Assembly (NCBI GenBank): GCA_014859835.1
Contig: JACZKW010000047.1
Span: 2,723-66,722 of the forward strand
Reading direction: 5' to 3'
Source: Thermoplasmata archaeon
Lineage (GTDB): Archaea; Thermoplasmatota; Thermoplasmata; UBA10834
Length of the DNA stretch: 64,000 nucleotides
The notes beneath the pieces are model-generated. The model had not been told where the DNA came from. It did no database searches and saw nothing but the letters and a program-made list of their open reading frames with translations. This document shows, in pieces, positions 2,302 through 50,292 of this stretch; position 1 is the first letter of the stretch, and every line of letters begins with the position of its first letter. The position numbers were made by a program, and so were the translations under genes.

Positions 2302-4011
2302 TTGCCAGATTCTAGCGGGGACAAACTCTGCCCCATCTGCGATTCTCCACTCCAGCCCGGATCGAAGAAGTGCGGGTTCTGTGGGACAGATTTGTCCATA
2401 TTCGATATGGATGTCGAAGAGCCTGTTCAGCCCATGCCTAGCGCTTCGGCTCCAAAGAAATCAATCGATACGATGGTTCGCGAGATCTTATCGGCTCCTC
2501 GCAATGAGCCCGAGGTCCCTGAGACCCCCAAGACCGAGGTCTCTGATGAATCCGCCGCGACTGCCGCTTCGCTGTTCTCGCAATCCCTATCTGATACCGG
2601 TCCTGAAACGGAGGAACCGGCAGCTGTCGAGGAAGAGGCCACTCCCAAGACACAAGTGACCGAGCCCGCCCAAGAGGACCAATTCGCATGTCCCGAGTGC
2701 GACGCAAGAGTGAGCATCACCGCATCCTCCTGTTCGAATTGCGGTGTTATCTTCTCAGACGAAGGCACAGAAGTATTCCAATGTCCTGCATGTAACACGC
2801 TCGTCAATATCGCCGCCAAGACCTGCCCTGGTTGTGGCGCTATGTTCGTCGAATCCGAGGAGGAAGCGGCTGCGTCAGTGGAACCTCAGCAAGAGCTCGA
2901 GCCGCCGATCGCTGAAGTCCCGGCCGTAAGCGAGACCCCAATCGTGAATGTGGAGGTCGAACCCGAGGATGCCGAGGAACCATCTTTTGATGAGGAGGAA
3001 GCGCCTGAGAAGGCTGCTCCTAAGGAGAAGAAGACCCGCTCACCATTCGGCTGGCTGAAGAAGCGCAAGAAGGACGATGCCCAAGAAGAGGCGGAGCTAG
3101 AGCAAGAACCCGAACCTCTGGACAAGCATGACCACGTCGAGGCCGGGCCATTGCGCCATCTAAAGGAAGAGCCGCAGCCAAGGATACACGAACCGGAGTC
3201 CACCAGACCTGCTCCAGTCCCGAAGACCACTCCCATGAATGTGGATCTGAAGGACAAAGGGAAGGAGCTTGCGAGGATGGTGGCGGAGATGAAGCCACTC
3301 CTGTCCCTGGCCATGCAGAATGAGATCGAGATATCCGAGAGTAAGCAGCTCATCGATGACGCGGCCATAGCTGGACGAGAGAGGCAGCTCGAGAAAGCCC
3401 TTGAGCTCGTTAACACCGCACGCGCGTCCCTCGTGGATTCAATAGACGAGAGGCTGGCCGAGACGCTCGATCAACTGAGGGAAGAGGCCCAAGTAGCCGA
3501 GGAGCTCGGCGGCGAGGTATCTCGATCGAAGACATACATAAGCGAGATGGAGAAGGCCAAATCCAGTGGTGATGTGGAGGCCGCTTTCATCTATTCAGAC
3601 AAGGTCTCGAACGAGCTCCTTCCGATCACGGGCAGATACAACGAAGCGAAGAAGAAACTCAAATCATTGAAATCATTGCTTTCGGATTGCGAGATGCTCA
3701 TACTCGATACAAGGGAGGCACGTGCATCTTTCGTCGAGGCCAACAAGGCCTTTGATTCCAGGGACTTCGATAAGGCCGAGATGCTCATCACGCAGACGAA
3801 CGAGCGCCTCAACGCGGCCATCCCTGAGCGACTCACCGAAGAGATCAAGAACGCTCGTCACCTGCTCGTTGATGCGAAGATCCGAAACGTGAACATAACG
3901 CCTATGCTGACGATATTGAAGTCGGTGACCAACCTGACGAAATCGAAGGACTATTCGCAGGCGCTCAGAGAGTTGAGGGAATTCAAAGAGATGTCGAAGA
4001 AGACCATGTGA
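2302..4011 (+). CDS. triple C4 zinc-ribbon (DZR-type) protein with acidic/Pro-rich linker and C-terminal coiled-coil domain
   Basis: CPICDSPLQPGSKKCGFCG, CPECDARVSITASSCSNCG, CPACNTLVNIAAKTCPGCG; long E/P-rich linker; alpha-helical C-terminus; TTG start with GGAGG 11 nt upstream. Confidence 0.6.
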   Translation: MPDSSGDKLCPICDSPLQPGSKKCGFCGTDLSIFDMDVEEPVQPMPSASAPKKSIDTMVREILSAPRNEPEVPETPKTEVSDESAATAASLFSQSLSDTGPETEEPAAVEEEATPKTQVTEPAQEDQFACPECDARVSITASSCSNCGVIFSDEGTEVFQCPACNTLVNIAAKTCPGCGAMFVESEEEAAASVEPQQELEPPIAEVPAVSETPIVNVEVEPEDAEEPSFDEEEAPEKAAPKEKKTRSPFGWLKKRKKDDAQEEAELEQEPEPLDKHDHVEAGPLRHLKEEPQPRIHEPESTRPAPVPKTTPMNVDLKDKGKELARMVAEMKPLLSLAMQNEIEISESKQLIDDAAIAGRERQLEKALELVNTARASLVDSIDERLAETLDQLREEAQVAEELGGEVSRSKTYISEMEKAKSSGDVEAAFIYSDKVSNELLPITGRYNEAKKKLKSLKSLLSDCEMLILDTREARASFVEANKAFDSRDFDKAEMLITQTNERLNAAIPERLTEEIKNARHLLVDAKIRNVNITPMLTILKSVTNLTKSKDYSQALRELREFKEMSKKTM

Positions 4012-4026
4012 CCTCGATCGATGAGG

Positions 4027-6255
4027 TCAGGTCAGGTTCAGAACCTCCATCTCCCTCTCCATTATCGATATCTCCTGCTCCTTCATGGTCTCAGGACTTA
4101 TCGAGACTGCGAATATGCATTTCGATTCTGACACTTCATCGATTATGCTCCTCAGGAATCTGAGTACTGAATCGAAATTGGTGTTGCTGATAAGGTATTG
4201 TATGCCATCGAGGACGACCATGCTGTTCCCCTCCTCCGACATGAACTCCTGGATCTTGTGAATGATCATCTCCAGTGATGGTGGGACCGTCTTCTCCATC
4301 GAACTATCCTTGTCCGTAAGCCAGAGTATCCGTGGGTCATTTACGAAAGCATCTCTGATCCTCTTTGGGTTCATCCTCGTTATTATGAGCCCTCTGTAGT
4401 TCTCGGCCATCATTCGTTCCATCAGGACATTGCTGTAGGTCGGTTTCTCTTCCTCTATCAGGTAGCAATGGCCAGGCTGGATATTGACCTCCTTCATAAT
4501 CTCCTTCCTAGTCTCTTGCACGGGGGCGAGCGGCTTGAGTATGTCTGAGATGAGGGTCATGTCGATTTCCATCTTCATTATGGTGGAGAACGCGACGACC
4601 TTGTTCAGCGTGCTCTCTATCTCACGGACATTCTGAGTGACCTTTTCGGCGATGTACTTGACTATCTCATCGCTGAGCTTCAACTTCTTCTCATGAGCCT
4701 TCACCCTGACGAGTTTGATCCTGGTGTTCTCGTCTGGCGGCAGCAGATCGACGGTCAATCCCTTCTGGATCCTGGCATTCAACCTGTCGCTGAAGCCTGG
4801 GATCGCTGTGGGTAGCCTGTCGCTAGCAAGCACGACCTGCTTTCCGGAGTCGATGAGCGAGTCGATGATGTGTACCATCTCACCCTGAGCCTGTTCATTG
4901 GCTCCTAGGAACTGCATGTCGTCGACAAGCAGGAGTTCGGCGTGGTTCAGCTCCTCCCTCAGCTTCTTGATGGCATCTGAAGTCGCACTGTGCTCGACCG
5001 CGTCGACTAGCTTGTCGGCCGGCGCGTACAGGACGGCCAATTCTCTGTTCTTGTTCAGTATGTGGTTTCCGATGGCTGACAGAAGATGTGTCTTTCCCAG
5101 GCCAGTCGCACCGAATATCAGGAGCGGGTTGTATGCCTTGCCTGGATTCTCAGCTACCGCGACCGCGGTCGCTGCCGAGAACTTCGAACCTGGTCCTATC
5201 ACGAAGTTGTCGAATCTCATCTCTGGCGGGAATGACCTGGTGAACCTCTGCTCCTTCTCGCACTTGCCGCACTGTCCATCTTCCATCTCCCTGCCGCAGA
5301 TGGGGCACTTCTCGCCTTTCACTGCCTCCTCACCATCGGGTGTTGTCTGGTACTTGAGGATCAAGTCGTATACATCCGACGCCTTCTCATCCCTCTTCTT
5401 ACGTTCCATCTCCTGCTTTATCGAATCCTCTTCTGCCTTCCTCTTCTGTATCTTGCGGCGGATCTTCTCCTGCAGGAACTCGATGTCCGATTCTATCTCC
5501 GCGATACGAGTGCAATCGTTCAGTTTCGTTCTTATCTCCGCAATCTCCGGCTCGAGTCCGAGTATCGGGAAATTGTTCAGGATCGTCTCGAACTGCCTGA
5601 GCTTGTTCGTATCGCGCTCGAAGCTGGTCAGTTCCTTGGAGATCTCCTGGACACCTTGCTCCCTCGCCGTCTCAAGAGTCTCCACCTTGTACCCCTTCCT
5701 GCGCCATTGCTCTATCTTCTCCGCATACGGGTCGATTTCCGCCTCTTCCTTGACCTTCGCTTCGTCTCGGGCCTTAGGGGTCGGTTTGGGGGCGACTCTT
5801 CCAGCGATGTAGGCGTCGGGGAACCGGCGTTCGAATTCCTCTTTGGGGACACGACTGTGGAGCTCGATGTTGGACTCCTTGTCCTGCGAGTCCTCGAGTA
5901 TGAATCTCAGCGACTTCTCTCCGGTGTATATCCTCCGCAGCTCCCTGGGTTTCGATTTCTCAAACTCGTAGATCGCCATGACAGGCGTCCCAAGCTCCAC
6001 CACTATGTAACCCGTGGAGTTCATCATGGACTTCTCGAGCGTGACCTTCAGGTAACCAGTGAAACTGTATTGTTTCAGGTCCGACAGTATGCCTTTTAAT
6101 GAATCAAGGCCTCCTTTGGCGGTCCTTACGATTATCCCCTCAGGGATTCGGAGATCACTAGCCATGTCTGGGTCCGCTCCGTGAATACTGTCGAAACCTA
6201 TTAACCCTTGTTGCTCGTCATAACCGCTGGCGTGGACCGATGCCGCCATTACCAT
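4027..6255 (-). CDS. multidomain DnaA/Hda-like AAA+ ATPase: DUF4388-like N-domain, coiled coil, zinc ribbon, DnaA domain III (incl. lid), C-terminal DUF835-like domain
   Basis: FDNFVIGPGSKFSAATAVAVAENPGKAYNPLLIFGATGLGKTHLLSAIGN (DnaA box VII/Walker A), LLLVDDMQFL (Walker B), VVLASDRLP (sensor), LTVDLLPPDENTRIKLV, NVREIESTLNKV (lid); CPICGREMEDGQCGKCE zinc ribbon; C-terminal PGHCYLIEEEKP...ILWLTD...VVLDGIQYLI DUF835-like; start moved to in-frame ATG at 6255 because ORF-track N-terminus (to 6411) overlaps a tRNA. Confidence 0.8.
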   Translation of the reverse strand: MVMAASVHASGYDEQQGLIGFDSIHGADPDMASDLRIPEGIIVRTAKGGLDSLKGILSDLKQYSFTGYLKVTLEKSMMNSTGYIVVELGTPVMAIYEFEKSKPRELRRIYTGEKSLRFILEDSQDKESNIELHSRVPKEEFERRFPDAYIAGRVAPKPTPKARDEAKVKEEAEIDPYAEKIEQWRRKGYKVETLETAREQGVQEISKELTSFERDTNKLRQFETILNNFPILGLEPEIAEIRTKLNDCTRIAEIESDIEFLQEKIRRKIQKRKAEEDSIKQEMERKKRDEKASDVYDLILKYQTTPDGEEAVKGEKCPICGREMEDGQCGKCEKEQRFTRSFPPEMRFDNFVIGPGSKFSAATAVAVAENPGKAYNPLLIFGATGLGKTHLLSAIGNHILNKNRELAVLYAPADKLVDAVEHSATSDAIKKLREELNHAELLLVDDMQFLGANEQAQGEMVHIIDSLIDSGKQVVLASDRLPTAIPGFSDRLNARIQKGLTVDLLPPDENTRIKLVRVKAHEKKLKLSDEIVKYIAEKVTQNVREIESTLNKVVAFSTIMKMEIDMTLISDILKPLAPVQETRKEIMKEVNIQPGHCYLIEEEKPTYSNVLMERMMAENYRGLIITRMNPKRIRDAFVNDPRILWLTDKDSSMEKTVPPSLEMIIHKIQEFMSEEGNSMVVLDGIQYLISNTNFDSVLRFLRSIIDEVSESKCIFAVSISPETMKEQEISIMEREMEVLNLT

Positions 6256-6302
6256 GTCAAAAGGCTTAACTACAGAGACAATCTTCCCAACATTCCGTCT
6301 GC

Positions 6303-6406
6303 CACTGTAGCTCAGCGGTTGCGCCTGCGACCATGCAGGTGCCGCTAGAGAGCGGCAGTTTCGTAAACTGCAGGCCGGGGGTTCGAGACCCTCCAGTGGC
6401 TCCATA
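6303..6406 (+). tRNA. tRNA-Thr (anticodon CGU) with ~27-nt intron in the D-loop; CCA encoded
   Basis: Acceptor GCCACTG/CAGTGGC, D-stem GCTC/GAGC interrupted by TTGCGCCTGCGACCATGCAGGTGCCGC, anticodon arm GCAGT-TTCGTAA-ACTGC, T-arm GGGGG-TTCGAGA-CCCTC, discriminator T + CCA. Confidence 0.65.
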
Positions 6407-6461
6407 TCCACCCTCGTTGTCCAAGTGACAACTCTAATATGTCAGCGAGTCAATCGGCTTT

Positions 6462-7373
6462 TTGATGCCGGGCAAATCCGTTGTGTTCATCCCAGATTCC
6501 AAGTGCTCGAACTGCGGCACCTCCATCTCGGACTACTTGCAGGTCCAGGGTGATGGGAAAGCCACGTTCGTCTGCCCCAACTGCGGTAGTCCTGTTATCC
6601 GCGAGATCGTAGCCGGGGTTGCGCCTCCGACCCATCCTGACGAGGTTATCGAACTCGGGGGTGGCCAGACGACCAAGAGCCACTATCCTTGTCTCTACAT
6701 TCAACCCAGACACGCTCCACGATTCGACCTTCGGAACATGGTCCTGACATCGATCCGTCCGACCAAGTCCTTGACGAATCTGTATCTGTCCACCGATCTG
6801 AGACATGCGATCGCGATGGTCCTGGTATTCAGCGTGATCTCCACGATATTCAGTGTACTCATCACGCACGATATGGCTGAAGTGGTCGGTTACACTTCAA
6901 GGGATGCAGTCGGCATCGTCCTACAGGGGGTCGTGGGATGGATCGTCACCCTGTTATCGTTCCTCATATTCGGGGTCGTGGCTGCGCTTCTGTCCCACGA
7001 GATCTTCGGAGGGCGGGGAGACAAAGGATCGACCCTCACCCTGGTCGCTCATTGCTATCCCTGGTTCGTGGTCCTTTCGATAATCCTGCTGTCCCTCTTC
7101 GACTACGGGTTTGTAGGTCTCGACCTCGCGGGCGTCGATAGTTGGGCAGATGATGAGATTCAACAAGCCATGGTGTTCGGCGCGATATTCCTGGTCTTGG
7201 TCCTTGCTGGTTTGGTGTGGATCCTGCGCATCGTGAGCAAGGCGATTGGAGTAGCAAACGACATATCGACGGGTTCCGCAGCTCTGTGCGCCATCCTCGC
7301 AGGCGTCGCTGCAGGAATAATCGCACTCATCGTCGGCTCTTTCATGCGATTGCCGATAGGGATAAATTTCTGA
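6462..7373 (+). CDS. zinc-ribbon + polytopic membrane protein (Yip1-like topology)
   Basis: N-terminal CSNCG...(17 aa)...CPNCG ribbon followed by ~5 hydrophobic helices. Confidence 0.5.
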   Translation: MMPGKSVVFIPDSKCSNCGTSISDYLQVQGDGKATFVCPNCGSPVIREIVAGVAPPTHPDEVIELGGGQTTKSHYPCLYIQPRHAPRFDLRNMVLTSIRPTKSLTNLYLSTDLRHAIAMVLVFSVISTIFSVLITHDMAEVVGYTSRDAVGIVLQGVVGWIVTLLSFLIFGVVAALLSHEIFGGRGDKGSTLTLVAHCYPWFVVLSIILLSLFDYGFVGLDLAGVDSWADDEIQQAMVFGAIFLVLVLAGLVWILRIVSKAIGVANDISTGSAALCAILAGVAAGIIALIVGSFMRLPIGINF

Positions 7374-50195: not shown

Positions 50196-50292
50196 TGGGC
50201 CCGATCGGATTTGAACCGATGACCAACTGGTCTCTCAGGGAATTTTTATTCCCGTATGAGCCAATCGCTCCGCCGGACTAAGCTACGGGCCC
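50196..50292 (-). tRNA. tRNA-Met (CAU) with ~23-nt canonical intron after position 37; CCA not encoded
   Basis: GGGCCCG-TA-GCTT..GAGC-G-ATTGG-CTCATA[CGGGAATAAAAATTCCCTGAGAG]A-CCAGT-TGGTC-ATCGG-TTCAAAT-CCGAT-CGGGCCC-A. Confidence 0.8.

Follow-up and report, generated by a model that had tools for sequence, protein, structure and literature searches.

A strict bulge-helix-bulge intron in the D-loop of tRNA-Thr(CGU) of Methanomassiliicoccales-related Thermoplasmata

We have analyzed a 64,000-nt stretch of contig JACZKW010000047.1 from a Thermoplasmata archaeon (the window), in which the plus-strand segment 6301–6404 is very probably a functional tRNA-Thr(CGU) gene, expressed from a promoter as a 104-nt precursor from which a 29-nt intron, located between U20 and A21 in a strict hBHBh′ motif, would be spliced by EndA and a ligase. 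The gene, including the intron and an encoded 3′ CCA (6402–6404), was located with Rfam model RF00005 and with ARAGORN on spliced forms. The 5′ exon (6301–6319) consists of the acceptor 5′ strand GCCACUG, U8 and A9, the 5′ strand of the D-stem (GCUC, 6310–6313) and the start of the D-loop (A14, G15, C16, G18, G19 and U20, 6314–6319). The 3′ exon (6349–6401) continues with A21, the 3′ strand of the D-stem (GAGC, 6350–6353), the anticodon arm with the anticodon CGU at 6362–6364, a variable loop AGGCC, the T-arm GGGGG/UUCGAGA/CCCUC (T-loop 6382–6388) and the acceptor 3′ strand, which completes the stem GCCACUG/CAGUGGC ahead of the discriminator U (6401). All of these elements lie on the plus strand.

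RF00005 matches 6301–6401 (+) with 55.6 bits (E = 2.8e-9) against a gathering score of 29, which places the locus in the tRNA family. The alignment spans the full model (positions 1–71 of 71) and contains a single 30-nt insertion in the D-loop, following GGU. The in-silico spliced gene is called tRNA-Thr(cgt) by ARAGORN and forms a clean cloverleaf, but there is no such call when the insert is left in: the default mode misses the gene and the intron mode mislabels it tRNA-Gly(gcc) and places a false intron, i(32,8). The pre-tRNA folds with a z-score of −4.0 relative to shuffled sequences. A permissive Rfam scan of the whole window returned nothing besides four tRNAs. The initial annotation had proposed a tRNA-Thr(CGU) with a D-loop intron, and this reading is borne out by the covariance model, by the BHB fold described below and by the cloverleaf obtained on removal of the insert. 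The acceptor stem, CGU anticodon, T-loop UUCGAGA and encoded CCA that it named are all present in the sequence, and the covariance model, which it had considered might expose a pseudogene, scored the locus well above threshold. Its interval for the gene, 6303–6406, was set 2 nt too high.

The D-arm segment 6310–6353 folds as a helix, a 3-nt bulge, a second helix, a 3-nt bulge on the opposite strand and a third helix. The energy of this hBHBh′ fold, −23.2 kcal/mol, equals the minimum free energy of the segment. The 4-bp D-stem, which is invariant, serves as helix h. The central helix H (4 bp) is formed by A14, G15, C16 and G18 of the D-loop (6314–6317) with CGCU at the 3′ end of the intron (6343–6346), giving AGCG/CGCU. 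The outer helix h′ (8 bp) pairs GCGCCUGC at 6321–6328 with GCAGGUGC at 6335–6342 and is closed by the loop GACCAU (6329–6334). The 5′ bulge B1, G19 U20|U, occupies 6318–6320 with a predicted cut at 6319/6320, and the 3′ bulge B2, A G|A21, occupies 6347–6349 with a predicted cut at 6348/6349. The intron (6320–6348, tRNA position 20/21) thus reads U, the h′ helix with its loop, CGCU and AG, and its extent is supported by the minimum-energy fold, by covariation and by intron-less orthologues. Two 3-nt bulges on opposite strands are separated by a 4-bp helix and flanked by both h and h′, so that none of the relaxed forms (HBh′, hBH or BHL, in which a bulge or a flanking helix is missing or disrupted, and which require a broad-specificity EndA) describes the motif. 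The intron is therefore non-canonical in position only; its motif is a strict hBHBh′. It lies between nucleotides 6 and 7 of the 7-nt D-loop, the same relative place as 37/38 in the anticodon loop.

The register of the cuts was set by an internal control, the window's own tRNA-Met(CAU) (50196–50292, minus strand; Rfam 52.6 bits, ARAGORN -i), which carries a 23-nt intron at the canonical position 37/38. Its motif is a perfect hBHBh′ in which the anticodon stem is h, H is CUCA/UGAG (loop nucleotides 32–35 with the 3′ end of the intron), and the bulges are U36 A37|C and A G|A38. Placing each cut behind the second bulge nucleotide reproduces 37/38 in this gene, and the D-arm register follows from the same rule, consistent with the published BHB, in which the 4-bp helix lies between 3-nt bulges and includes anticodon bases 1 and 2 (PMC4090602). 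The two introns share an identical architecture and register, with the first four loop nucleotides in H, loop nucleotides 5–6 and 7 in the bulges, and a 3′ bulge AGA in both. They differ in the host arm, which is the D-arm with a 4-bp stem in tRNA-Thr and the anticodon arm with a 5-bp stem in tRNA-Met; a precursor that hosts the motif in its D-arm cannot form the D-loop/T-loop core before splicing. The tRNA-Met(CAU) gene has no encoded CCA and is also missed by the default mode of ARAGORN.

The initial annotation had placed an intron of about 27 nt at 6319–6345. The D-loop insert itself stands, and the CCUGC/GCAGG hairpin that it described is present at 6324–6328/6335–6339, but the supported boundaries are 6320–6348. 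A strict BHB folds at the junctions, where it had asked for such a motif. Splicing at 6319–6345 gives a cloverleaf that ARAGORN accepts, but the ends do not coincide with the bulge positions. ARAGORN accepts a splice at 6321–6347 equally and thus does not discriminate between the two; both are rejected by covariation, energy and the intron-less orthologues.

To place the gene among its relatives, one genome per species was scanned for tRNA-Thr(CGU) with any D-loop insertion of 12–42 nt, which yielded at least 119 loci. An interruption of the gene at this site is shared by at least 85 Methanomassiliicoccales/Thermoplasmata genomes (counted at species level), and 78 distinct archaeal genes with an insert at the identical site are found among the matches listed. 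The metagenome-assembled genomes (MAGs) that carry these 78 genes are nearly all titled Methanomassiliicoccales, Methanomassiliicoccaceae, Methanomassiliicoccus, Thermoplasmata, Thermoplasmatota, or the umbrella Methanobacteriota/Euryarchaeota, these labels being submitters' titles rather than phylogeny. The closest representatives examined, two loci titled ‘uncultured Thermoplasmata archaeon’ (L014 and L060), are 91% and 90% identical to the window over 8 kb. Intron lengths range from 13 to 32 nt, and the introns fall into several unrelated sequence families. As these families track the exon variants, the distribution indicates that the intron is old and has been inherited vertically within Methanomassiliicoccales and related Thermoplasmata. 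The scanned viral contigs contain no intron-bearing copy of the gene.

The geometry of two 3-nt bulges and a 4-bp helix is kept in all 78 distinct orthologues. The exons are near-invariant across this set, and the introns diverge with compensatory changes. Within H, G15–y5 is paired in 100% and G18–y7 in 99% of the sequences, N16–y6 is paired throughout (CG 76, GC 1, UA 1), and A14–y4 is A-U in 55 and A·G in 23. The first pair of the intron helix, x3–y8, is never broken (GC 58, AU 14, GU 4, CG 2). The 3′ bulge begins with A in 77 of the 78 sequences, and A21 is invariant (78/78). The exonic bases at the cuts are constrained, x1 being always U or C and y1 always A, and the adjoining intronic positions are free. 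In a fixed-register alignment of 57 distinct rows, from which the central part of the intron and four very short introns were omitted, 97.8% of cells are paired in the full structure, compared to 37–55% when the partners are slid by 1–3 columns. Cells changed on both sides number 114 against 32.6 expected, and none of 500 shuffles reached the observed covariation score. Each of the five h′ pairs examined in these 57 sequences has changes on both sides. Only the parts of the intron that the motif requires are constrained.

A metagenome scan for intron-less alleles that carry the exon-2 signature of the clade identified 25 loci (L122–L146). In all 25, the D-loop is AGCGG-UA, exactly the predicted spliced product, and excision of the 29-nt intron from the window gene restores a canonical tRNA with the identical 7-nt loop. 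The acceptor stem of the intron-less tRNAs is GCCACCG/CGGUGGC, the body is near-identical and CCA is not encoded; compared with some intron-containing variants, they differ only by one compensated acceptor pair. The DnaA/DUF835-like neighbour of the window gene is kept where the contigs are long enough (31–37% identity), and ThiC and GyrB are not nearby. The near-identical tRNA and the shared neighbour identify the intron-less genes as orthologues, from what the sequences place as a more distant sister lineage.

The most serious competitor is the same intron read one base off, as a 27-nt intron at 6321–6347, which would leave a mature D-loop AGCGGUUGA and place the intron at 20a/20b. Its motif would have H as GCGG/CCGC and bulges UU|G and UA|G. 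The four H pairs of this register are standard in 97–100% of the sequences, G19–y8 is GC in 42 and GU in 15 rows of the 57-row alignment with none unpaired, and the A·G pair found in 23 of 78 genes is sidestepped. Yet it requires an invariant A14·A21 mismatch between h and H and is weaker by 2.3 kcal/mol (−20.9 compared to −23.2 kcal/mol). It leaves the covariation of x3–y8 (AU 14, CG 2) unexplained, and its own pair G19–y8 merely drifts between GC and GU, with G·G in two sequences. It would also place the freely varying x2 and y2 in an otherwise almost invariant mature tRNA, and implies a 9-nt loop where all 25 intron-less orthologues have AGCGGUA. The 29-nt register is favoured by the x3–y8 covariation, by the energy and the A·A mismatch, by the constraint at the cut sites, and by the 25 intron-less alleles and their orthology; we therefore consider the shifted register unlikely.

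It is conceivable that the insert is retained, so that the mature tRNA would carry an extra hairpin arm in its D-loop. The insert does always fold into a stable hairpin. However, the feature conserved at any length between 13 and 32 nt is precisely the BHB arrangement, with its 4-bp spacing of the two 3-nt bulges, and not a particular arm. The motif moreover ties up A14, G15 and G18, which are required for the tRNA core, and the intron-less orthologous genes work with a 7-nt D-loop. Retention is thus very improbable, and the 29-nt insert is best regarded as an intron.

The surroundings of the gene fit an active locus. A putative archaeal promoter is located at 6258–6272 (+), spanning −43 to −29 relative to the 5′ end of the mature tRNA, and consists of a BRE-like purine-rich CAAAAGG (6258–6264) followed by a TATA-like CTTAACTA (6265–6272). 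The position profile of 87 distinct upstream regions contains an A-rich block at −42 to −36 and an A/T-rich block (77–95% A+T) at −35 to −29. This conserved profile and the consensus layout suggest that CAAAAGG-CTTAACTA is a BRE/TATA-type promoter. The 3′ CCA is genomically encoded in 85 of the 89 distinct downstream sequences, where a pyrimidine-rich tract comes next. A gene for a DnaA-like AAA+/DUF835 protein is divergent from the tRNA at 77 loci; ThiC is near at 79 loci and GyrB at 55.

In the window, the DnaA/DUF835-like gene (4027–6255, minus strand) encodes 742 residues, which include an AAA+ domain of the bacterial DnaA type (PF00308) and, at the C terminus, a DUF835 domain (PF05763). 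It is separated from the divergent tRNA gene by 45 bp and lies near gyrB/gyrA; the mechanical open reading frame, 4027–6411, crosses the tRNA, but the start was called at 6255. Among the neighbours of the tRNA it is the best conserved, being present at the 77 intron-containing loci and in the intron-less sister lineage. Next to it, an ORF of 569 residues (2302–4011, plus strand) contains several zinc-ribbon-like repeats of the form CxxC...CxxC, an acidic middle region of low complexity and a C-terminal part that is coiled; its position beside the DnaA/DUF835-like gene is conserved in the intron-containing as well as the intron-less lineages.

The reading of the locus as a decaying pseudogene, or as a tRNA gene broken by a random or mobile insertion, has in its favour that ARAGORN misses or mislabels the gene and that the Rfam score is ∼10 bits below that of the intron-less orthologues, but it is not tenable and has a negligible probability, given the near-invariant exons of 78 distinct genes around an insert that diverges with compensatory changes, the conservation of promoter, CCA and synteny, the absence of the gene from the viral contigs, and the size of the insert. 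The ribozyme core of a group I or group II intron, as described by models of the RF00028/RF00029 type, exceeds 200 nt. The insert measures only 29 nt, too short for either class; it matches no group I or group II model even at E ≤ 1, nor any other Rfam model.

We propose that the BRE/TATA promoter would direct the synthesis of a 104-nt precursor, in which the D-stem (h), the first four D-loop bases with the 3′ end of the intron (H) and the 8-bp hairpin (h′) may stack as one long arm, interrupted on opposite strands by the two 3-nt bulges. EndA would cut after the second nucleotide of each bulge, and an RtcB-type ligase would join the exons, after which the D-loop AGCGGUA would be free to form the normal tRNA core. 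The EndA and RtcB steps are taken from established knowledge of archaeal tRNA splicing, and the participation of these enzymes, like the exact junction, is inferred. Neither the window nor 0.94 Mb of related loci gave an EndA match in a tblastn search with M. jannaschii EndA as the probe (verified against PDB 1A79), and no ligase gene was found within the same sequences.

Archaeal EndA recognizes the BHB independently of the mature domain, and an α′2 enzyme of the Thermoplasmatales cleaves minimal BHB substrates (PMC8707768). The α′2 EndA of A. fulgidus, on the other hand, ‘hardly cleaved’ a strict BHB intron in the D-loop in vitro (PMC3241643). The host of the window would be assigned an α′2 EndA from the generalization that ‘Cluster II’ Euryarchaeota encode only this type (PMC5829648). 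Euryarchaeota with α4 or α′2 enzymes are described as having introns only at the canonical position (PMC4090602), and Korarchaeum as the only archaeon of the α2 type with non-canonical introns (PMC4033280). We can suggest only tentatively that the 20/21 intron is a clade-defining trait kept by selection and efficiently processed by an ordinary α′2 EndA without any specificity loop, a proposal that we regard as rather doubtful. If true, it would contradict the generalizations that archaea with α4 or α′2 enzymes have introns only at 37/38 and that Korarchaeum stands alone among those of the α2 type. One would then also have to ask why the intron is maintained: perhaps it delays the formation of the D-loop/T-loop core or the modification of the D-loop until splicing is complete, or alternatively protects the gene from integrating elements. 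In vitro, a D-loop BHB is hardly a substrate for the best-studied α′2 enzyme. A natural D-loop substrate with a strict and strictly conserved BHB, from a lineage assigned the ‘narrow’ α′2 type, offers a direct test of whether position matters for this enzyme class.

Introns in the D-loop are already known, and 20/21 is among the intron positions recorded in the review literature. A close precedent is the D-loop intron of pre-tRNA-Thr2(UGU) of Aeropyrum pernix, which also has a strict BHB and is removed by EndA alone, with no need of a guide RNA or modifications, although it was the A. fulgidus α′2 enzyme of the same study that hardly cleaved it (Hirata et al. 2011, PMC3241643). A. pernix is, however, a crenarchaeon whose broad-specificity (αβ)2 EndA has a Crenarchaea-specific loop, whereas the window host belongs to Thermoplasmata. 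The isoacceptors also differ (UGU compared to CGU), and the A. pernix intron is a single-species case for which conservation across a clade is not shown, in contrast to the clade-wide intron described here. In Methanopyrus kandleri, pre-tRNA-Glu(UUC) has an intron at 20b/21 (Kaneta et al. 2018, PMC5829648); like the window intron, it is euryarchaeal and occupies essentially the same D-loop site, just before A21. Its motif is a relaxed HBh′ and it occurs alongside a second, canonical intron, whereas the window intron is a strict hBHBh′ and the sole intron of its gene; the host EndA of M. kandleri is (αβ)2.

Table S7 of tRNAscan-SE 2.0 counts six non-canonical introns in three Methanomassiliicoccales genomes (Chan et al. 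2021, PMC8450103). These are bare numbers, with no position, isotype, motif type, conservation or link to the endonuclease type. The tRNA-Thr intron of the window type is very likely among those counts, and automated annotation has probably seen it. Apart from this supplementary-table count, we found no prior paper that describes the intron, its position or its conservation in Methanomassiliicoccales or Thermoplasmata. The new element, which we consider mildly notable, is conservation at one site in at least 85 genomes of a lineage that is assigned a narrow-specificity α′2 EndA. The expectation of the initial annotation that the intron would help in lineage placement is confirmed: it is a simple marker for Methanomassiliicoccales-related Thermoplasmata and not for Crenarchaeota, the best-known hosts of such introns, and the intron-less sister lineage brackets its gain or loss.

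The intron also affects annotation. Intron-less orthologues score 67 bits with Rfam and intron-containing ones 56–59 bits. Of 14 intron-containing orthologues surveyed, four were missed or only partly recovered under the default filters and gathering thresholds of Rfam: L015, L045 and L099 were unreported, and L003 appeared only as a partial match of 29.7 bits. All four genes are intact by pattern and pairing analysis. Thus, intron-containing copies can vanish silently in routine annotation, and the one tRNA devoted to decoding ACG may seem to be absent from MAGs of the clade.

In one MAG (Thermoplasmata archaeon PPR_0081), an intron-bearing tRNA-Thr(CGU) is found on each of two contigs, represented by L013 and L042. 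The two introns are different (22 and 29 nt), and ThiC is in the neighbourhood of both genes, a pattern that points to mixing of genomes in the bin more than to a real duplication. Very short inserts (∼12–18 nt) at the same D-loop site of tRNA-Thr(CGU) were also observed outside the main clade, in L046 (Rfam match 6816–6899, minus strand), L050 (2037–2126, plus strand), L102 (Rfam match 5289–5373, minus strand) and L108, whose MAG titles name Methanosarcinales, Nanoarchaeia, another Thermoplasmatota and Micrarchaeota. These inserts share CGCU or CGUU and an A-N-A 3′ end with the main clade, and the first intron-helix pair of L046 is C-G. They suggest that the intron is much older, or else that insertions have recurred at the site.

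About 27 bacterial matches, among those listed, were considered as possible D-loop introns and rejected, as in each of them a complete tRNA comes after the 5′ fragment of a tRNA. In Patescibacteria/CPR, a complete tRNA-Thr(CGU) is found inside a tRNA-like gene, in units of 164–200 nt, such as L010 (6968–7167) and L029 (7331–7515) on the plus strand. Homologous units are present in L033 and L075 on the minus strand and, truncated at the 5′ end, in L089. A complete unit begins with the outer acceptor 5′ strand, the 5′ strand of a D-stem and the start of a D-loop, followed by a spacer, the inner tRNA and 50–90 nt. Its 3′ part is a T-arm, replaced in L075 by a plain hairpin, and then an acceptor 3′ strand with 7 of 7 positions complementary to the outer 5′ strand. 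The two tRNA-Thr-like genes are nested in either order, depending on the genome; the units share the motifs GGTAGA-TTTACCC and hairpin-ATAAACTCC, and Rfam detects only the inner tRNAs. A 2026 paper on tRNA introns of Patescibacteria concerns group I introns and not nested units (PMC13011429). In the related CPR loci L107, L118 and L109, a tRNA 5′ fragment, ending in its D-loop, precedes a complete tRNA-Thr(CGU), and no matching outer 3′ acceptor strand was found within 400 nt. The complete tRNA lies between inverted repeats of 11–14 bp, which are near-perfect in L118 (1416–1540, plus strand) and L109 (minus strand) and perfect in L107 (3982–4100, plus strand; CCCCGCACCTTTTA ... TAAAAGGTGCGGGG).
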